IMG/VR virus record: IMGVR_UViG_2740892271_000013
Direction: 5' to 3' (one strand)
DNA length: 45,778 nt
Origin: a virus
Taxonomy: Duplodnaviria > Heunggongvirae > Uroviricota > Caudoviricetes
Positions 1,668-39,744 of this stretch are shown piece by piece. A program made the position numbers and the translations under genes. A model generated the notes under the pieces. It searched no databases. It saw only the letters and a list, made by a program, of their open reading frames with translations, and had not been told where the DNA came from. The first letter of the stretch is position 1. Each line of letters begins with the position of its first letter.

Positions 1668-2765
1668 ATGGCGTACTATAACATAGAGAAACGACTAAAA
1701 TCCGATGGCACACCACGCTATCGCTGTAATGTGATTATCAAAGAAAAAGGTGTTATCACTTACAGGGAAAGCAAAACATTCCCTAAACATGCTCATGCCA
1801 AAACATGGGGCGCACAGAAAGTGATGGAATTAGATCTATATGGCATTCCATCATCAAATGCTGTTGACGGACTTACAGTCCGTGACTTACTACACAAATA
1901 TTTAAATGACCCAAATGCCGGAGGTAAAGCAGGCCGTACTAAAAGATATGTGCTGGAACTGCTTATGGATAGTGACATCTCCGCGATCAAACTATCTGAA
2001 CTGACAGAAAATGACGTAATTGAACATTGCAGGCTAAGAAACAACGCTGGTGCAGGCCCAGCAACAGTCAGCCACGATGTTAGTTATCTTGGCAGTGTTC
2101 TGGATGCGGCAAAACCTGTATACGGAATCAATTACACATCAAACCCGGCGAAAAGCGCTCGTCCATATCTACTTAAACTCGGTTTGATTGGTAAATCAAA
2201 CCGTCGTAATCGTAGACCAGCATCTGATGAACTGAACATGCTCATTGAAGGCCTTCAACAACGATCTACTCATAAATGCTCAAAAATTCCGTTCGTTGAT
2301 ATCCTCAAATTTTCTGTGTGGTCCTGTATGCGAATCGGAGAAGTATGCCGGTTACGATGGGAAGATCTCGACCAGGAACAAAAATCTATACTAGTAAGAG
2401 ACAGGAAAGATCCACGTAAAAAGGAAGGCAACCATATGAAAGTTGCCTTGCTTGGGGAAGCCTGGGATATCGTCCAGCGACAACCCAAAAAATCAGAATT
2501 CATTTTTCCATATAACAGCACTTCTGTTACCGCAGGATTTCAGAGGGTAAGAAGCAAATTAGGTATTAAAGATCTGAGATACCATGATTTGCGTAGAGAA
2601 GGGGCAAGTCGCTTATTTGAGGCTGGTTTTAGTATTGAGGAAGTCGCTCAGGTTACAGGGCATCGTTCATTAAACGTGCTATGGCAGGTATATACCGAAC
2701 TGTATCCGAAATCTTTACATAATCGTTTTGAAGAACTCCAAAGGAGCAGAAATAAGACCTCTTGA
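1668..2765 (+). CDS. int: Tyrosine-type site-specific integrase (dusA-targeting family candidate)
   Basis: 365 aa; C-terminal catalytic region with HDLRREGASRLFEAG and GHRSLNVLWQVYTELY (R-H-R-Y signature); GAGG ribosome-binding site 7 nt upstream; location next to dusA 5' end. Confidence 0.85.
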   Translation: MAYYNIEKRLKSDGTPRYRCNVIIKEKGVITYRESKTFPKHAHAKTWGAQKVMELDLYGIPSSNAVDGLTVRDLLHKYLNDPNAGGKAGRTKRYVLELLMDSDISAIKLSELTENDVIEHCRLRNNAGAGPATVSHDVSYLGSVLDAAKPVYGINYTSNPAKSARPYLLKLGLIGKSNRRNRRPASDELNMLIEGLQQRSTHKCSKIPFVDILKFSVWSCMRIGEVCRLRWEDLDQEQKSILVRDRKDPRKKEGNHMKVALLGEAWDIVQRQPKKSEFIFPYNSTSVTAGFQRVRSKLGIKDLRYHDLRREGASRLFEAGFSIEEVAQVTGHRSLNVLWQVYTELYPKSLHNRFEELQRSRNKTS

Positions 2766-2813
2766 CACTGTTTATCCATACAGTTAAAAATAATACTGTA
2801 TACAAATACAGTG
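2762..2813 (+). promoter_or_regulatory. SOS-regulated promoter with two tandem LexA boxes upstream of the dinI-like gene
   Basis: TTGACA at 2762-2767; LexA boxes cactgtttatccatacagtt (2766-2785) and tactgtatacaaatacagtg (2794-2813), both CTG-N10-CAG. Confidence 0.7.
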
Positions 2814-2825
2814 TAGGGGACTTTT

Positions 2826-3074
2826 ATGCGTATTGAAATCTGCATAGCCAAAGAAAAAATGACTAAAATGCCAACCGGTGCTGTGGATGCGTTAAAGGAA
2901 GAATTAACCCGACGCATCAGTAAACGTTATGACGATGTAGAAGTGATCGTAAAAGCCACCAGCAACGATGGCCTTTCTGTTACGCGCACCGCTGATAAAG
3001 ATTCAGCTAAAACTTTTGTTCAGGAGACTCTGAAAGATACCTGGGAGTCTGCTGACGAGTGGTTTGTTCATTAA
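2826..3074 (+). CDS. DinI-like DNA-damage-inducible protein (RecA modulator family)
   Basis: 82 aa [11 protein letters not shown]...[13 protein letters not shown]...[16 protein letters not shown] resembles DinI (C-terminal TWESADxWF); LexA boxes upstream. Confidence 0.8.
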
Positions 3075-3105
3075 GTTCATCATCTCTGGACACCATTCAC
3101 TTGTA

Positions 3106-3134
3106 TTGACTTTAAGATCATTAAATTGTAATAA
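3106..3134 (+). promoter_or_regulatory. Sigma-70-like promoter (TTGACT-N17-TAATAA) for the RT cassette
   Basis: -35 TTGACT 3106-3111, 17-nt spacer, -10 TAATAA 3129-3134; predicted start near 3141. Confidence 0.45.
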
Positions 3135-3140
3135 TTCAAA

Positions 3141-3296
3141 GGGATGGGGCAGGTTTTTCCTCTTGCGCATGCAAGGGCGGCTCTGATAATGAACAGTAAT
3201 ATTTTACTGTTGAGCTTATGCTCACTGATCCTGCCGGGCAGGATGTTCAACGGTTCCAATATATCCTGCCCCTTCCGCTTTTAAAAAGGATCTTTT
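3141..3296 (+). ncRNA. Structured 5' leader / candidate RT-associated non-coding RNA with repeated GGCAGG/CCTGCC motif
   Basis: GGGGCAGG (3146-3153), palindrome ATCCTGCCgGGCAGGAT (3228-3244), ATCCTGCCCC (3263-3272) and small hairpins (CAGTAA/TTACTG 3194-3209); no ORF of 60 aa or more; immediately upstream of the membrane-protein and RT genes. Confidence 0.3.
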
Positions 3297-3848
3297 ATGC
3301 ATGACAATATTTGGTTTACATATAAAGCACGTATCCAAGCGCACCATCGACTAGAATGGCTTGAAAAACACTCTCAATTTATCCTCGTTTGGTATGCTAT
3401 ATTGAGTGCGGTACTTTCAATTGTAACGTTGCGATTTCCAAAGGTTCTAGGAGATAATACAGATGTCGTTGCGGCGATACTTTCAGTGGCTCTACTGGGT
3501 ATTTCTCTGATCGTATCTAACCTAGATTTTCGTGGTCGAGCAATAGCCATGAGAAGGAATTATATTGCACTACAGCGACTCTATTTTGACATTACCACCA
3601 GTCAACAGTTATCTCTTGAACAGAAAGAAAAATATTTTAATTTGCTCAATGAGGTTGAGAATCACCGTGACATAGATGATAAAATTTCAAGGGTAACTCA
3701 AGTTGGACTTAAGACGAGGATCCCCACACAAAAAGAAAAAATAATTGTTATTTTATGGATATTACTTCGAATATTTATTACTGCCGCACTTTATATACTC
3801 CCATTAATATATCTTTGGATTGACTATGACTGCAAGCAGAATTTTTAA
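3297..3848 (+). CDS. Small membrane protein with three predicted TM helices (SLATT-like effector candidate), overlaps the RT gene
   Basis: 183 aa; hydrophobic helices FILVWYAILSAVLSIVTL, VVAAILSVALLGISLIVSNL and IIVILWILLRIFITAALYILPLIYLWI, charged helical middle; AAGGA ribosome-binding site; 29-nt overlap with RT start. Confidence 0.6.
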   Translation: MHDNIWFTYKARIQAHHRLEWLEKHSQFILVWYAILSAVLSIVTLRFPKVLGDNTDVVAAILSVALLGISLIVSNLDFRGRAIAMRRNYIALQRLYFDITTSQQLSLEQKEKYFNLLNEVENHRDIDDKISRVTQVGLKTRIPTQKEKIIVILWILLRIFITAALYILPLIYLWIDYDCKQNF

Positions 3849-5196
3849 AAAGTCATTCTCGAAAAAAAATCTTCTAAAAGTATACTCTGAAAAAATCAAA
3901 GAATCAGGAGCGATTGGCATAGATCGGATTCGCCCATCAAAACTTGATTTGACAATAAAAAATGAGATCACTTTCATTTTTGAAAAGGTTAATTCTGGCA
4001 ATTACAAATTTACAGCATATAAAGAAAAATTAATATCTAAAGGCGCTAACTCTACACCCAGACAGATTTCCATACCAACTGCTAGGGACAGAATTACTCT
4101 TAGAGCTCTCTGTGAATGCCTTACGGAAATATATCCTAAGTCCAGATTAAAACTACCACATACAGTAATTGACTCATTGAAAGAAGCATTAAACAACAGT
4201 CTATATGCTGAATATGCAAAAATAGATCTTAAAAGTTTCTATCCTTCAATTGAACATAAATTGATAATTAATGCAATAAAAAATAAAATTAGAAAAAAAG
4301 AAATTAGACAGTTAATAACATCATCATTAATCGTGCCTACTGTAAGTGGAACCACAGGAAGCAAAGGTATCCCTAATAATACCAGAGGAGTACCTCAGGG
4401 ATTAGCGATATCAAACATTTTAGCTGAAATATCACTATCTAATTTCGATGATGAAATCAATAAAATGCATGACATATGGTACATGCGATACGTTGATGAC
4501 ATTCTTATTTTAACACCAAAATATCAAGCAACAAAAATAGCTTCTCATATCATTGATAAGCTTCAATCATTAAATTTAAACCCACATCCATTAAATGAAG
4601 AGAACTCAAAATCCAAAGTAGGCAGCTTGGATGAAAGTTTCAACTTTTTGGGCTACCACATAAAAAATCGAGAATTATTGATAAAACATGAGAGCATTCT
4701 TAGATTTGAGTCATCCTTAGCAAAAATTTTTACTGCATATAGACACGCTCTACTACAAGCTAAAAATAAGCGCGATAAAGAACGAGCTGTTGCATATTGT
4801 CAGTGGAAACTAAATCTTAGAATTACGGGATGTGTGTTTGAAGGTAAACGATTGGGATGGGTATCGTACTTCTCACAAATAACGTCAACAGCTCAACTTC
4901 GAGCTGTTAATCATACGATCAATAATCTTATCCGCCGATTCGGCCTTTCATCAGAAATAAAACCAAAGTCTTTGATTAAAACTTTCTATGAACTCCGCAG
5001 GGGTAGAGCGGAGACTTTTAAATACATACCTAACTTTGACAATCTACATATATCTCAGAAACGAGAAATTGTTTCTATGTGGATAGGGAAAGAGAATGAA
5101 AAAAAACTTAGCAATAGTGAAATAGAGAGAAAATTTAAATTTAAAATTGCGAAATCAGTAAAAGAGCTTGAAGAGGACATTTCAGGGATATCATAG
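3820..5196 (+). CDS. Reverse transcriptase (retron/Abi/UG-like, not intron-type)
   Basis: 458 aa; RT motifs seen directly: KIDLKSFYPSI (motif A), GVPQGLAISNILAEI (motif B), YMRYVDDILIL (YVDD, motif C), FNFLGYHI (motif E); about 160-aa C-terminal extension of unknown function. Confidence 0.85.
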   Translation: MTMTASRIFKKSFSKKNLLKVYSEKIKESGAIGIDRIRPSKLDLTIKNEITFIFEKVNSGNYKFTAYKEKLISKGANSTPRQISIPTARDRITLRALCECLTEIYPKSRLKLPHTVIDSLKEALNNSLYAEYAKIDLKSFYPSIEHKLIINAIKNKIRKKEIRQLITSSLIVPTVSGTTGSKGIPNNTRGVPQGLAISNILAEISLSNFDDEINKMHDIWYMRYVDDILILTPKYQATKIASHIIDKLQSLNLNPHPLNEENSKSKVGSLDESFNFLGYHIKNRELLIKHESILRFESSLAKIFTAYRHALLQAKNKRDKERAVAYCQWKLNLRITGCVFEGKRLGWVSYFSQITSTAQLRAVNHTINNLIRRFGLSSEIKPKSLIKTFYELRRGRAETFKYIPNFDNLHISQKREIVSMWIGKENEKKLSNSEIERKFKFKIAKSVKELEEDISGIS

Positions 5197-5290
5197 ATAT
5201 GTAATCCATTAAATCCTTTATATATAAAGCAATAAACACACTATTTAAATTCACAAATCAGCCGCAGTATCCTGCCATGACAAGTTGCTG

Positions 5291-5792
5291 NNNNNNNNNN
5301 NNNNNNNNNNNNNNNNNNNNNNNNNNNNNNNNNNNNNNNNNNNNNNNNNNNNNNNNNNNNNNNNNNNNNNNNNNNNNNNNNNNNNNNNNNNNNNNNNNNN
5401 NNNNNNNNNNNNNNNNNNNNNNNNNNNNNNNNNNNNNNNNNNNNNNNNNNNNNNNNNNNNNNNNNNNNNNNNNNNNNNNNNNNNNNNNNNNNNNNNNNNN
5501 NNNNNNNNNNNNNNNNNNNNNNNNNNNNNNNNNNNNNNNNNNNNNNNNNNNNNNNNNNNNNNNNNNNNNNNNNNNNNNNNNNNNNNNNNNNNNNNNNNNN
5601 NNNNNNNNNNNNNNNNNNNNNNNNNNNNNNNNNNNNNNNNNNNNNNNNNNNNNNNNNNNNNNNNNNNNNNNNNNNNNNNNNNNNNNNNNNNNNNNNNNNN
5701 NNNNNNNNNNNNNNNNNNNNNNNNNNNNNNNNNNNNNNNNNNNNNNNNNNNNNNNNNNNNNNNNNNNNNNNNNNNNNNNNNNNNNNNNNNNN
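5291..5792. other. Run of N (assembly gap or masked sequence)
   Basis: 502 consecutive n characters. Confidence 1.
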
Positions 5793-6104: not shown

Positions 6105-9100
6105 TATGCAAGCCTCACAATATAGTTAAATGCGATGTTTTTGACGGTGTTTTCCGCGTTACCCGCAGCGTTAACGGTGATGGTATGTCCATGTGAACCA
6201 ATCGCAACGGAGTGCGTATGAGCACCAATACCGACAGTATGCGCGTGTGCACCTGCAGATGCTGCTGTGCCGGACAGTGAGTGGCTATGATTACCATCTG
6301 TACTGGTATTCGCTAACCACCCCGTAGACATACCTACTGAGCCTTGTACACCCCAGGTATTTTGACCTGAGCTTGTATAACCATATTGATAAGTATCTTT
6401 AAAAACACTGGGGTTAAATCGACGGCCATCTCTATGGCTGTGATTACCAGCTGCATTCGTGCTGCCACTTAAACTATGGGTATGCGCACCAGTGTTATTC
6501 GTGGATTTAGTGCCGTAATCAAACGACGATGTGGTTTTCGTCCCCAAATCCGTACTGGATGCGCTGGCGCTGTGGGTATGCGATTTAATGCCGTCCTGTT
6601 CCTGAGACAATACGGCCCGACCACTGGCAGGTTTGCCCTTAATCGTCCAGCCACGCATATCAGGGATCACACCTGACGGATAAACGGCTGCAAGTTTCGG
6701 GTAAGCAGATTTGTCAAAAGTCTGTCCCTGCATCAGGGCATAACCAGACGGAACGGTATCTGATGGCCACGGGATTGGTGCACCGACTGGGTAGCTTTCT
6801 GGTGGAAGATTTTTCGAGGTATAAACTTCTGCCCAGTCTTCCTCAAAACCATAACCGTCTCTTGAAGAACGGTAGAACAGACCACCATTTCTGTAATGCG
6901 CCTTCATCTGCAAGGTCCGGCAACTTCCGACTCCGGTATAGAAGTTAACCAGAATATAGCTGTTGCCAGAGCGGGTGACATTGTAAGCGCCTGATTCGGC
7001 ATTCCATGGAACGCCACCATCCGCATCGGCATATGTATCCGTTGCCCTTCTGGCAAAAGCAGCCACATGCGCGGCGGTTAAAGTAATATCTTTGGAACCA
7101 TCAAACTCAACACCAGAAACCAGTCTTGGCGTTTGCAGCTTTGTTGCTGTCAATGCGTTACCGTTCAGACTTGCAGACAGTTTGGTTCCAATAACCAGTT
7201 CGCCGGTTGCGTTATCAATAACAAACGGTCTTAATGTATTCCAGCCACCATAAACATCACCTTGATTGGTAAGCAGCAGGTAAGTTTTAGCGCCATCATT
7301 ACGCCATAATGCACCATACTCCCCACCTATCATTCGAATCTGATTACCACCACGCGCTACAATTTCGTCTGTGGCAAAAAGTTTTTTGCACGACAAGTTA
7401 TCGTTAACGATTAACGAATGAGACTCATAAAAACCACGCCCACTCTTAAAATCAAGGATAACGTCCGCCGCGATACATTCAGTCGCCGGATTTGTTGCCC
7501 CAAACTTATAGGTCGTATCATTAACAACGAGATCAGCACCAGGTGCGGATATTGACAGGCCATCTTCGAGAAACGCAAAAACAGGGAAAGCAGCGCCATC
7601 AACATAGAACACAGAGCGCAAATCATCGCCCTTATTACTCATCATTATTGAGTGGATGGCTCGTTCATTGTTTTGATATTGCCAGAACATTCCATAAGCA
7701 TAACGCCCCCTGTCAGTCCAGCCACCAGGCATAACAAATCCGTTAAACTCGCAGTTATTCATCGGATCGCCTGCGATTCGCGTTGCCGTGGTGATAATGA
7801 CCCTTGATGCCAGTTCGCTTACTGAGCCAGCAGAACGCATAACAACAACAGGGTAATATTTTCCAGATGTTGCACCTGCAGGAGCGTTAACCCGCACATA
7901 ACGCATACCACGCTTATCAGCAAAGTCTGTTTTACTGACCGCGTTAATGTTGTTCAGGAAGCGTCCCTTATCGGGTATATCAGCGCCGTTCTGGTCTTTC
8001 TGCAGACGTTTCTCAGCATTGTCATTGGCTGCTTTTACTGCCTTTGGCGTTGCCGCCAGCGTTTCAGACGTGCTATTAGTCGCACTACTGAGCTGTACTA
8101 TCCCCTTTTTCGTCGTGCTCGCATCCTCAAGCGCCACGGCGGATGCAATATCCTCTGCACGTTTTGCCGCTGTCTCGGCGCGCGTTGCCGCGGATTCCGC
8201 CGTACTTTTGCTCTGTGCTGCCGCCGTCGCACTGCCAGCAGCCTCTGTCGCCTTCGTGGATGCTGTCGTGGCGCTGCCCTTCGCTGCGGACGCTTGTCTG
8301 GTCGCCTCATCTTTTGAAGCAGACGCCGATGATGCCGATGACGCCGCCGAACTGGCGGACGATGCGGCAGCCGTTTTTGAGGATTCTGCGCTGGTCTCCG
8401 ACGCTTTCGCGTTCGTCTCCGATGTCTTCGCTGCGGAAGCAGACCTCGCTGCTGCACTGGCCTGTTCAGTGGCTTCGCCAGCCTTCGTTGTGGCTGTTGA
8501 AGCGGACGATGCGGCGCTTTCTGCCGATTTTCCGGCGGCGCTAGCACTGGCTGAGGCCTGCCCGGCACTTGTTGACGCTGCACTGGCAGACGACGCAGCC
8601 GCTGTTTTTGAGCCTGCTGCTGCGGAGGCACTCTGTGCTGCTGCCGTTTCAGAGGACTTAGCGTTTGTCTCAGACGTCTTTGCCGCCTTCGCGGAATTTC
8701 CTGCCGCCGTTGCCGAGGAAGCGGCATTACTGGCGCTCGAAGCTGCGCTCGTTTCTGATAATTTTGCCGCCTCTTTTGAAGCCGACGCATCTCTGGCTGA
8801 GGTGGCTGCTTCTGACGCTTTCGTGGTCGCGGTGGATGCAGAAGTGGCAGCTGATTGTTGTGACGCTGCCGCATTCGTTTCTGACGTTTTCGCCGCACCG
8901 GCACTGGTGGCCGCCGCGCTTTTTGAGGACTCTGCAGCGGCAGCACTTTTTGATGCTTCAGTGGCCTTTGCTGATGCCGTTCCTGCGCTGGAAGACGCAG
9001 ACTGAGCCGACGAAGCGGCCTGTCCGGCTGACNNNNNNNNNNNNNNNNNNNNNNNNNNNNNNNNNNNNNNNNNNNNNNNNNNNNNNNNNNNNNNNNNNNN

Positions 9101-9572
9101 NNNNNNNNNNNNNNNNNNNNNNNNNNNNNNNNNNNNNNNNNNNNNNNNNNNNNNNNNNNNNNNNNNNNNNNNNNNNNNNNNNNNNNNNNNNNNNNNNNNN
9201 NNNNNNNNNNNNNNNNNNNNNNNNNNNNNNNNNNNNNNNNNNNNNNNNNNNNNNNNNNNNNNNNNNNNNNNNNNNNNNNNNNNNNNNNNNNNNNNNNNNN
9301 NNNNNNNNNNNNNNNNNNNNNNNNNNNNNNNNNNNNNNNNNNNNNNNNNCGGCATGTGACGGCGGGAATCCTTCCACCAACAGAATAACGCTGTACTGAC
9401 CGTACTCAACGTCCATGCTGTAACGCCCGGCTTCATCCGGATTTTCTGAGGCCAGCGTGTTCACCACCACCGTGGTGCTGTTACGTTTTGCTTTCAGCTG
9501 GATTGTGCAGTTCTGTACCGGTTTTCCTGTGCCGTCTTTCAGTACACCTGAAATCTTTACTGCCATATTCAC
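6104..9572 (-). CDS. stf: Side tail fibre protein (lambda Stf / Rac StfR-like), interrupted by an N run
   Basis: N-terminus [39 protein letters not shown], long Ala/Ser/Thr-rich shaft repeats, His-rich C-terminal region ending [31 protein letters not shown]; frame break across 9032-9349 is a gap artefact. Confidence 0.85.
9032..9349. other. Run of N (assembly gap or masked sequence) inside stf
   Basis: 318 consecutive n characters. Confidence 1.
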
Positions 9573-15068: not shown

Positions 15069-15806
15069 TTACTGCGAAAGTTTGTTAATGGAAAGGAAGC
15101 CGCCAAAGTTGCCGACGTTATTGCGAAACTTACAGCCGCTCAGGCATTTGCTGCATTTATCCTTCGTGATATCGGACGTCGGCTGATCATATTCATCCGC
15201 GACCGCCGGACCGTGATAACCGCACTCATCGCCGCGATAGGTCCAGGTGCAGGTGTTGGCCAGCATGATACGTCCCGGAAAAACGGCACCGTCCGTTTCC
15301 GTCGGCGTGGACAGTACAAAGGAGGCACTGACCGCGCTCAGTTCGCTGCACTGCTCGATGCGCCAGCGGCTGATCACCTCCTGCTCCGGATCGGCGTCAC
15401 TGTTTCCGTTGACGAAGTTCACCGCATCCAGAAAACGGGCGTAAACCTTACGCCGGACCACCGTTCCGCCGACCAGACTCTGCAGATCTTCCGCCATCCC
15501 GGTGACCATGCCGTGCAGGTTAGAAACCGTCAGTGTCGGACGGGCAGCACTGCCCTTGCCGTTCAGTTCAANNNNNNNNNNNNNNNNNNNNNNNNNNNNN
15601 NNNNNNNNNNATCCCGTCCCCTGAATGGGATACGCCTGATACTGTCGCCCCTGCCAGGTGACCGGCTCACCTTTTTCGTTCTGCTCATTACAGAAAAAAT
15701 AACGTTCTCCACCGACCTCTGTCAGATCGATTTCCCAGAGCACCACCTGGGCTGACTGAGTGAGGCGTGTCGTCTCATGATGTGTTTCCTGTGGAATATC
15801 CTGCAT
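15069..15806 (-). CDS. L: Minor tail protein L
   Basis: 245 aa resembling lambda gpL including C-terminal Cys cluster (CSKCLSGCKF); contains a 39-nt N run. Confidence 0.8.
   Translation of the reverse strand: MQDIPQETHHETTRLTQSAQVVLWEIDLTEVGGERYFFCNEQNEKGEPVTWQGRQYQAYPIQGTGXXXXXXXXXXXXXXELNGKGSAARPTLTVSNLHGMVTGMAEDLQSLVGGTVVRRKVYARFLDAVNFVNGNSDADPEQEVISRWRIEQCSELSAVSASFVLSTPTETDGAVFPGRIMLANTCTWTYRGDECGYHGPAVADEYDQPTSDITKDKCSKCLSGCKFRNNVGNFGGFLSINKLSQ
15572..15610. other. Run of N inside gene L
   Basis: 39 consecutive n characters. Confidence 1.
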
Positions 15807-30632: not shown

Positions 30633-30944
30633 NNNNNNNNNNNNNNNNNNNNNNNNNNNNNNNNNNNNNNNNNNNNNNNNNNNNNNNNNNNNNNNNNNNN
30701 NNNNNNNNNNNNNNNNNNNNNNNNNNNNNNNNNNNNNNNNNNNNNNNNNNNNNNNNNNNNNNNNNNNNNNNNNNNNNNNNNNNNNNNNNNNNNNNNNNNN
30801 NNNNNNNNNNNNNNNNNNNNNNNNNNNNNNNNNNNNNNNNNNNNNNNNNNNNNNNNNNNNNNNNNNNNNNNNNNNNNNNNNNNNNNNNNNNNNNNNNNNN
30901 NNNNNNNNNNNNNNNNNNNNNNNNNNNNNNNNNNNNNNNNNNNN
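30633..30944. other. Run of N inside the holin region
   Basis: 312 consecutive n characters. Confidence 1.
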
Positions 30945-38915: not shown

Positions 38916-39744
38916 GACGATGCCCTCCGCTGATATTCAGGAGACGGTGAATATGAAAATTAGCCTTATCCGCCAGACGAATACGTTCAGCTTGCAAGTT
39001 AAGAAGGGTTTCTACCAGAACCTGATGTGCCTGCGGATCCGAAAGAGTTACCTTGCGCAGAGCACGTAGTGCAGTTGTTACATAACTGAGTTTATGTAAG
39101 TCTTCATCATTCAGACGAGTGAGGGCTGGGACAGTAGCCATGATGGCAGCCTCCTTGATCGGTGAAATACTTCCACCACCGGAAACGCCAATTTCGCTGG
39201 TGGTGAACTGAACGGGGTTGGCGTAACCGGTGATCAAGGAAACCGGCGCATCTTTCGATGCCCCCGCCCAGCCCACCATAACTTTGATGTGAGCAAATGC
39301 GGACGATAAAAAAGACGCTGGCGCGTCATATATCGCCTTGATCAATTCCAGGACGCCAATCCCGGCACCCGCTTTATAAGGTGCCTGAACAGTGTAACGT
39401 CCCGGAATGGCAGAATCAATGTGCTGGTGGTCCTTCACACTCAACAAAATCACGCCTGAATTTCCACAAAGGACTAAAGCACTCATGCGGGTAGTCTTTG
39501 CGAAGATAGATAACGCGCTGTGTTTCTGGCTCCCAACGAATAACATGAACATAAAGTCCTCTTCCGTCACGAAACCAGCGGTTAAGTTCCTGCACAACTC
39601 GCCCCCCACAGTCAGGTAAAGTTCTCTGTGGTTACTTACAGCCAGGTGATTTGGTAATCTGCATTCATGCCGTAACAACAGGTGTTCAGCGACGCTGACC
39701 ACCAGCTGTTGCGACAAACGGTTATTTGCCGTTAAACTGTTCAT
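38908..39744 (-). CDS. Hypothetical protein of unknown family in the early-right operon
   Basis: 278-aa ORF between cII-like and O-like genes; Gly-rich segments (AGAGIGV, SGGGS); no recognised motif. Confidence 0.45.
   Translation of the reverse strand: MNSLTANNRLSQQLVVSVAEHLLLRHECRLPNHLAVSNHRELYLTVGGELCRNLTAGFVTEEDFMFMLFVGSQKHSALSIFAKTTRMSALVLCGNSGVILLSVKDHQHIDSAIPGRYTVQAPYKAGAGIGVLELIKAIYDAPASFLSSAFAHIKVMVGWAGASKDAPVSLITGYANPVQFTTSEIGVSGGGSISPIKEAAIMATVPALTRLNDEDLHKLSYVTTALRALRKVTLSDPQAHQVLVETLLNLQAERIRLADKANFHIHRLLNISGGHRHA

Follow-up and report, generated by a model that had tools for sequence, protein, structure and literature searches.

The leader of the reverse transcriptase (RT) cassette, between the predicted promoter (3106-3135) and the first ATG (3297), very probably encodes the ncRNA of a DRT10 (UG17) anti-phage system, located at 3142-3278 (probability about 0.93, judged by homology with characterised systems). 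The window, i.e., the whole stretch of 45,778 nucleotides that was analysed, is an E. coli prophage with dusA as its insertion site, and it holds the three DRT10 parts: the ncRNA, a SLATT_5 effector (3297-3848) and a UG17 reverse transcriptase (3826-5196). The GGCAGG/CCTGCC repeats that stand out in the leader are the arms of SL1 and SL5, two helices that flank the template. The leader ncRNA is a member of an already known family (Tang 2025; Sanchez-Nieto 2026; Ramirez 2026); it is real and functional, not new.

The DRT10 locus

The genes around the leader are listed below.

1668-2765: tyrosine integrase gene
2826-3074: DinI-like gene
3297-3848, + strand: SLATT_5 two-transmembrane effector gene, 183 aa (Pfam PF18160, E = 1.3e-28; PADLOC RTasSLATT, E = 1.5e-56)
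3826-5196, + strand: UG17/DRT10 RT gene, 456 aa, ATG at 3826 (PADLOC RT_UG17, 527 bits, E = 1.1e-158)

The RT carries an RVT_1 domain (Pfam), its start at 3826 agrees with the RefSeq annotation, and its gene overlaps that of SLATT by 23 nt. An alignment showed residues Y222-V-D-D, R371, K385, Y388 and the C-terminal S456 to be invariant in 15 homologues; these are the RT residues that matter in Eco3 (PMC12632851; 10.64898/2026.06.29.735271). A UG17 RT encoded with SLATT defines DRT10, a three-part system of which the third part is an ncRNA directly upstream of SLATT (PMC12632851; 10.64898/2026.04.29.721553; 10.64898/2026.06.29.735271). The same three studies jointly show expression of the DRT10 RNA, RT binding, templating, protein priming, the boundary role of SL5 and a requirement for defence. 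An expressed, RT-bound templating RNA that defence requires has been shown for Eco3, Eco1, Eco2 and E3659 (PMC12632851; 10.64898/2026.04.29.721553).

The leader looked unexplained in the initial annotation because Rfam 15, the PDB copy and RefSeq all lack the DRT10 ncRNA. Rfam 15 holds no DRT10 family and gave no family match in 3090-3310 even at E <= 10, noise aside, and RefSeq leaves the leader unannotated. Searching the PDB copy returned no DRT10 structure, the nearest entry being the group II intron RT 6ar1 (E = 4e-14). The stretch recorded as a 'leader' should carry the label DRT10 ncRNA, with its template at 3248-3256.

Repeats and fold of the ncRNA

A sequence check found all four repeat elements where the initial annotation had placed them.

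3146-3153: GGGGCAGG
3228-3244: perfect 17-bp palindrome ATCCTGCCgGGCAGGAT with a single central base
3263-3272: ATCCTGCCCC
5269-5276: ATCCTGCC, a further copy

With both strands counted, the window holds eight copies of the 8-mer ATCCTGCC, whereas shuffles predict 1.69 +/- 1.2 and none of 100 shuffles reached eight; three of these eight copies fall within 3228-3270. Since the 6-mer CCTGCC is generally enriched across the window (45 copies vs 25 expected), isolated copies elsewhere carry little weight.

The segment 3142-3278 folds to -57.2 kcal/mol (z = -4.6 relative to dinucleotide shuffles), and its minimum free energy (MFE) structure has five stem-loops. The outer repeat copies pair in it as a long-range stem, with GGGGCAGG and CCUGCCCC as the two SL1 arms, and the palindrome folds back on itself into a hairpin of 7 bp; the bases 'AT' in the third ATCCTGCC copy are part of the 3' linker and lie outside the SL1 stem. 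The parts are as follows, with nucleotide n of the RNA at window position 3141+n and pair counts from the alignments described below.

3142-3278, + strand: DRT10 ncRNA, 137 nt, putative ends placed by homology to Eco3DRT10
3142-3153, + strand: SL1 5' arm, nt 1-12, GGAUGGGGCAGG, which includes GGGGCAGG and pairs with 3265-3276; 9 of 11 pairs compensatory
3160-3177, + strand: SL2, nt 19-36; 5 of 7 pairs compensatory, one near-invariant U-G pair (67 of 68 distinct sequences)
3178-3191, + strand: loop A, nt 37-50, CGGCUCUGAUAAUG, including U43 and G44; nearly invariant in the alignments
3192-3211, + strand: SL3, nt 51-70, AU-rich; 100% of cells paired, 5 of 6 pairs compensatory
3212-3223, + strand: SL4, nt 71-82; 4 of 4 pairs compensatory
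3228-3244, + strand: SL5, the 17-bp palindrome, nt 87-103, with a 7-bp stem and a 3-nt loop; 4 of 6 model pairs compensatory
3245-3264, + strand: loop B (template loop), nt 104-123, consisting of G104, a UU linker, the template, A' and an AUAU linker, in the Eco3 register
3248-3256, + strand: template A-B, nt 107-115, CAACGGUUC, at the same positions as Eco3 CAAUGAUUC
3257-3260, + strand: alignment segment A', nt 116-119, CAAU, on which the cDNA 3' end would re-anneal; C116 is the published priming position
3265-3276, + strand: SL1 3' arm, nt 124-135, CCUGCCCCUUCC, which with the preceding linker bases AU makes up ATCCTGCCCC

The elements around the template keep their published places as well: SL5, the 5' template-boundary anchor in Eco3 (PMC12632851; 10.64898/2026.06.29.735271), lies between G86 and G104 (window positions 3227 and 3245), followed by UU at 3246-3247 and, after A', by AUAU at 3261-3264. 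The window locus shares with Eco3DRT10 the promoter, the 137-nt RNA, SLATT and a 456-aa RT that ends in S456 (PMC12632851; 10.64898/2026.06.29.735271). Within the RNA, the five stem-loops, U43 and G44 of loop A and the G86/G104 flanks of SL5 are the same, and so are the linkers U105-U106 and A120-U123, the template start C107, G111, the priming position C116, A117 and U119. The window RNA is also consistent with the published GC contents, 75% for SL1 and 25% for SL3.

Loop A (GGCGGYUCUGAUAAU) is far more conserved than loop B across Enterobacterales, Pseudomonas, Stenotrophomonas and Bordetella. In Eco3, loop A is copied into a short abortive product only (10.64898/2026.06.29.735271). The pairs between loop A and loop B that appear in the single-sequence MFE structure were discarded, as they do not covary and the Eco3 allele disrupts them.

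Conservation and covariation among homologous loci

We gathered 164 loci from species-representative genomes, metagenomes, viral contigs and E. coli genomes. Upstream regions of 22 diverse loci, with RTs 38-98% identical, were aligned with MAFFT, and a covariance model was built from this alignment. RNAalifold applied to the plain MAFFT alignment of the 22 homologues independently gave the same five helices. When the structure derived from the window was placed on the alignment, 95.7% of cells were paired, against 48-58% with slid partners. Both sides had changed in 20 of the 37 pairs, and none of 500 shuffles reached the observed value for any of five measures.

The covariance model matched the window once, at 3136-3282 on the + strand (133 bits, E = 1e-31), and this match stops 15 nt before the SLATT ATG. 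In the window and 117 further loci (118 sequences) it gave one match per locus, on the + strand and just 5' of SLATT, and these matches extend to loci whose RTs are about 40% identical to that of the window. The 68 distinct matches have 96.5% of cells paired and compensatory changes in 27 of 34 pairs, and all five helices covary. This 68-match alignment was fitted to the covariance model, and the count on the MAFFT alignment is the cleaner test.

As one reading, the initial annotation had proposed an RNA of about 130 nt, specific to the cassette and closed by the outer inverted copies, and had named folding and covariation across homologous loci as the check. The pairing proved to be conserved in those loci, with covariation in all five helices, which supports a structured RNA of some 130-140 nt; the closing stem corresponds to SL1, in which 9 of 11 pairs covary. 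Across the family, SL1 is usually GGCAGG/CCUGCC or one of the covarying versions GGUGGG/CCCACC, GCGCAGG/CCUGCGC and GCGUAGG/CCUACGC. SL5 mostly takes the form of a short AUCC(C)/(G)GGAU hairpin. Three extra upper SL5 pairs, UGC/GCA, are restricted to the enterobacterial clade (RTs 77% or more identical to that of the window) and make SL5 resemble SL1, while the full 8-mer identity between SL5 and SL1 is confined to E. coli. The sequence identity of the two helices is a lineage-specific trait and is not needed for the fold.

The near-invariant U-G pair of SL2 and the many other G-U pairs show that the conserved entity is a + strand RNA, not a DNA palindrome. We also considered a minus-strand reading. 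The reverse complement folds about equally well (z = -4.9), but the G-U pairs and all model matches favour the + strand.

This evidence bears directly on the suggestion that a dimeric regulator binds the palindrome and that the cassette is controlled through the GGCAGG copies as an array of operators. The palindrome is perfect, has one central base and sits between the promoter and the first gene, as such an operator might. However, the half-site is conserved only as AUCC/GGAU in the 68 distinct homologues, the SL5 stem ranges from 5 to at least 7 bp and its loop from 2 to more than 10 nt. With sequence, stem length and loop length all variable, what is kept is the pairing, through compensatory changes and U-G wobbles that break DNA symmetry. 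The conserved module contains no regulator gene, and in a published experiment a mutant with inverted SL5 kept defence whereas one with shuffled SL5 lost it (10.64898/2026.06.29.735271). We consider an operator extremely unlikely and read the palindrome as the SL5 hairpin.

The initial annotation had further supposed that the inner palindrome offers alternative pairings. The SL5 5' arm (3228-3235) is identical to the 8 nt right after the template loop (3263-3270), both reading AUCCUGCC. With this duplication the two stems could exchange partners: the 5' arms of SL1 and SL5 would pair with each other, as would their two 3' arms. In such a strand-swapped fold the template would be enclosed in a hairpin loop, and switching between it and the native fold would tune RT activity. 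The swapped fold lies at -53.9 kcal/mol, 3.3 kcal/mol above the MFE of -57.2 kcal/mol, and its predicted share of the ensemble is about 2% for the window allele and about 30% for the Eco3 allele. Furthermore, the SL5 5' arm and the segment after loop B share 4.26 nt, compared to 3.82 in permuted pairings, a value that none of 1000 permutations reached. Yet this similarity comes from 2 or 3 lineages, and relatedness can explain the permutation result. On the MAFFT alignment, paired cells make up 81.8% and 58.8% of the two swapped helices, a level that slid or shuffled controls also reach, and these helices do not covary; the full swap is predicted only for E. coli alleles. Published work points the same way, since the SL5 inversion removes the SL5/SL1 identity yet keeps defence, and the cryo-EM structure shows the native fold (10.64898/2026.06.29.735271). 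A switch of this kind is very unlikely, and the likeness of the SL5 arm to the segment after loop B is probably incidental. There is a slim chance that, within the E. coli lineage, the strand swap acts as a built-in switch that sets basal versus induced cDNA synthesis, with the template alleles shifting the equilibrium. The alternative pairings of the inner palindrome thus find no covariation behind them, and the palindrome is best described as the SL5 hairpin, the template-boundary element of the DRT10 ncRNA.

Template alleles and predicted product

In Eco3, template A-B is CAAUGAUUC (nt 107-115), A' is CAAU (nt 116-119) and the product is (GAATCATTG)n (PMC12632851). The window RNA has the A-B-A' direct repeat CAA-CGGUUC-CAA at nt 107-118, in the single-stranded loop between SL5 and the SL1 3' arm. 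Its template differs from that of Eco3 by two transitions, U110C and A112G, and the predicted cDNA repeat is 5'-GAACCGTTG-3', giving the product (GAACCGTTG)n in place of the Eco3 repeat GAATCATTG. A repeat of at least 3 nt also occurred in 57 of 68 shuffled loops (~83%), which makes the mere count of A-B-A' repeats non-discriminating as a test. Because such repeats are common in shuffled loops, it is the register and the homology that carry weight here, not the repeat count.

We recognised the Eco3 allele among the loci by its published cDNA motif. E. coli CE10 (L049) and a second locus (L048) carry the Eco3 template CAAUGAUUC unchanged, in an RNA that is nearly identical elsewhere, CE10 being 98.1% identical to the window over the 211 bases compared. 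The enterobacterial loci, with extended SL5, hold three template alleles, all with a 9-nt period and differing only by transitions at positions 110 and 112. Among 48 collected loci, the window allele CAACGGUUC was found in 33, CAACGAUUC in 11 and the Eco3 allele CAAUGAUUC in 4. The experimentally characterised Eco3 allele is the least common of the three in this collection, and the window allele is the commonest; E. coli AR434 (NZ_CP029122) is one strain that carries it.

All alleles of the clade retain CAA...CAA at a period of 9 nt. The identity between A and A' is 3 nt in the window allele and 4 nt in the Eco3 allele. The 3'-terminal TTG of the product would re-anneal on C116-A118, and the next dG would stand opposite U119 as a possible dG-rU wobble. 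Loop B of the window allele also contains GUUC...GUUC with an 8-nt period; this register could compete only if synthesis leaks past the SL5 boundary.

Taken over from the characterised system, the course of events at this locus would be the following. The ncRNA would be transcribed from its own promoter just upstream, which is visible in the sequence and presumably active. It folds into a multi-branched structure in which SL1, with GGGGCAGG paired to CCUGCCCC, closes the molecule, and four further hairpins form, among them the palindrome as SL5. By analogy with Eco3DRT10, two RT copies would bind one ncRNA, and SL5 and SL1 would serve as anchors that hold the single-stranded loop B in one active site. 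The RT would prime from its own C-terminal S456 opposite C116 and copy CAACGGUUC up to the SL5 boundary, with copying expected to halt two nucleotides from SL5. The new DNA end could then return by slippage to CAA(U) at 3257-3260, and further rounds would follow, yielding kilobases of single-stranded (GAACCGTTG)n. The repeat DNA, host SbcB and a phage trigger would together control the membrane effector SLATT; according to published experiments, repeat DNA, SbcB and a phage SSB-like protein may set the threshold for SLATT activation. The steps from RT binding to SLATT are carried over from experiments on a 98%-identical allele, the template of which differs at 110 and 112.

The register is also one of the points against a retron, which the initial annotation had brought in by comparing the outer copies to a1/a2 repeats. 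As a retron-like msr-msd, the locus would have GGGGCAGG/CCUGCCCC as a1/a2 and make a branched msDNA primed from a 2'-OH. Terminal inverted repeats around a structured RNA of about 110 nt beside an RT gene would fit this, and some database names label homologues 'retron-type RT'. SL1 is indeed formally equivalent to the a1/a2 repeats, but this feature is not retron-specific. The best model for the RT is RT_UG17 with 527 bits, the next being Drt3a with 130 bits, and no retron model was among the 25 matches listed; the gene order is ncRNA-SLATT-RT. In addition, the RNA lies in the Eco3DRT10 register, where Ser456 primes and 9 loop nucleotides are copied repeatedly. The RT is of the UG17/DRT10 type (PADLOC E = 1e-158), a type that, according to published work, primes from the protein and copies a 9-nt template in a loop, and the chance of a retron is close to nil.

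Comparison with related systems

Further close relatives are the UG17-A ncRNA of Escherichia sp. E3659 and Eco1DRT10. Like the window RNA, these are independently transcribed RNAs upstream of SLATT, with a basal SL1 formed from both ends that is essential there for RNA stability (10.64898/2026.04.29.721553; 10.64898/2026.06.29.735271). They also have a loop template with a short direct repeat, ACU...ACU in their case. In contrast, they have six stem-loops, a 7- or 8-nt repeat and a 445-aa RT, and Eco1 uses tyrosine priming. The covariance models published by others work only within subtypes (10.64898/2026.04.29.721553).

DRT9 (UG28) and DRT2 (UG2) also have class 2 UG RTs with an adjacent structured ncRNA as internal template, and the overall DRT9 fold resembles that of DRT10 (PMC12632851). 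Neither has a core SLATT effector. DRT9 makes poly-dA from a U-tract, whereas the concatemeric cDNA produced by DRT2 encodes a gene. Retron msr-msd RNAs share with DRT10 the terminal inverted repeats that close a structured RNA beside an RT, but their RTs belong to another clade, and DRT10 has neither branching-G priming nor an msd stem that is copied end to end.

Current interest in DRT10 stems from its product, a telomere-like tandem-repeat DNA made with a template and a boundary element much as in telomerase, and from the proposal that the system is a bacterial relative of that enzyme. Telomerase RNA similarly has a short internal template, separate templating and alignment segments and a 5' helix that stops synthesis, and repeats are added via slippage and re-annealing (PMC12632851). 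Unlike telomerase, DRT10 is bacterial and protein-primed, uses two RTs per RNA and releases a free ssDNA product instead of extending a chromosome end.

Promoter and upstream region

The promoter scan gave 10 of 12 matches plus a TG extension upstream of the ncRNA.

3106-3135, + strand: sigma-70-type promoter of the ncRNA, with -35 TTGACT at 3106-3111, TG extension at 3127-3128 and -10 AATAAT at 3130-3135

The spacer between TTGACT and AATAAT is 18 nt, and transcription is predicted to start near 3141-3143. In 60 of 69 distinct homologous loci there is a -10 hexamer of the type TANNNT, often carrying a TG extension, with 3-9 nt between its end and the start of SL1. The AATAAT of the window falls outside the strict TANNNT pattern and aligns with CATAAT/CATACT of its own clade. 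The -10-like hexamers 5' of SL1 agree with the published independent transcription of the ncRNA (10.64898/2026.04.29.721553). A scan of the + strand in 2700-5290 found no terminator-like site, and none is clear after the ncRNA.

The promoter of the DinI-like gene (2826-3074) lies between two sites that resemble LexA boxes (CTGT-N8-ACAG), one at 2768-2783 and the other at 2796-2811. A DinI-like gene lies directly upstream of DRT10 in all six inspected E. coli loci, which occupy three insertion sites (dusA, prfC and yecD). No terminator-like site was found between dinI and the ncRNA promoter, which makes SOS-induced read-through into the defence cassette conceivable.

Downstream copy and post-RT region

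The copy of ATCCTGCC at 5269 had been grouped with the leader repeats in the initial annotation. It lies in the loop of a hairpin that follows the RT gene.

5260-5290, + strand: 5' half of the post-RT terminator hairpin, with ATCCTGCC in the loop; the 3' half is masked by N

An unmasked counterpart in one of the collected loci (L045) reads AGCCGCAGUA...UUGCUGCGGCU followed by UUUUU, and folds to -21.3 kcal/mol (z = -3.1). The copy has no conserved counterpart in homologues, and we leave it out of the cassette; it is outside the ncRNA system and looks like chance. A conserved downstream copy of the motif was considered and rejected: of 70 loci, only 10 have their own SL1 6-mer in the 300 nt that follow the RT, at scattered positions, and we estimate that a random 6-mer would be expected there in about 7% of loci.

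Masked runs of N occur at 5291-5792, 9033-9349, 15572-15610 and 30633-30944. The first of these hides the 3' arm of the terminator and a small minus-strand ORF that is annotated as tail-fibre assembly or hypothetical protein in related E. coli loci. Elsewhere in the window, Rfam matches at gathering score were obtained on the minus strand for C4 antisense RNA (39196-39283, 82 bits) and isrK (39308-39384, 64 bits), and these two (39196-39384) probably mark the immunity region of the prophage.
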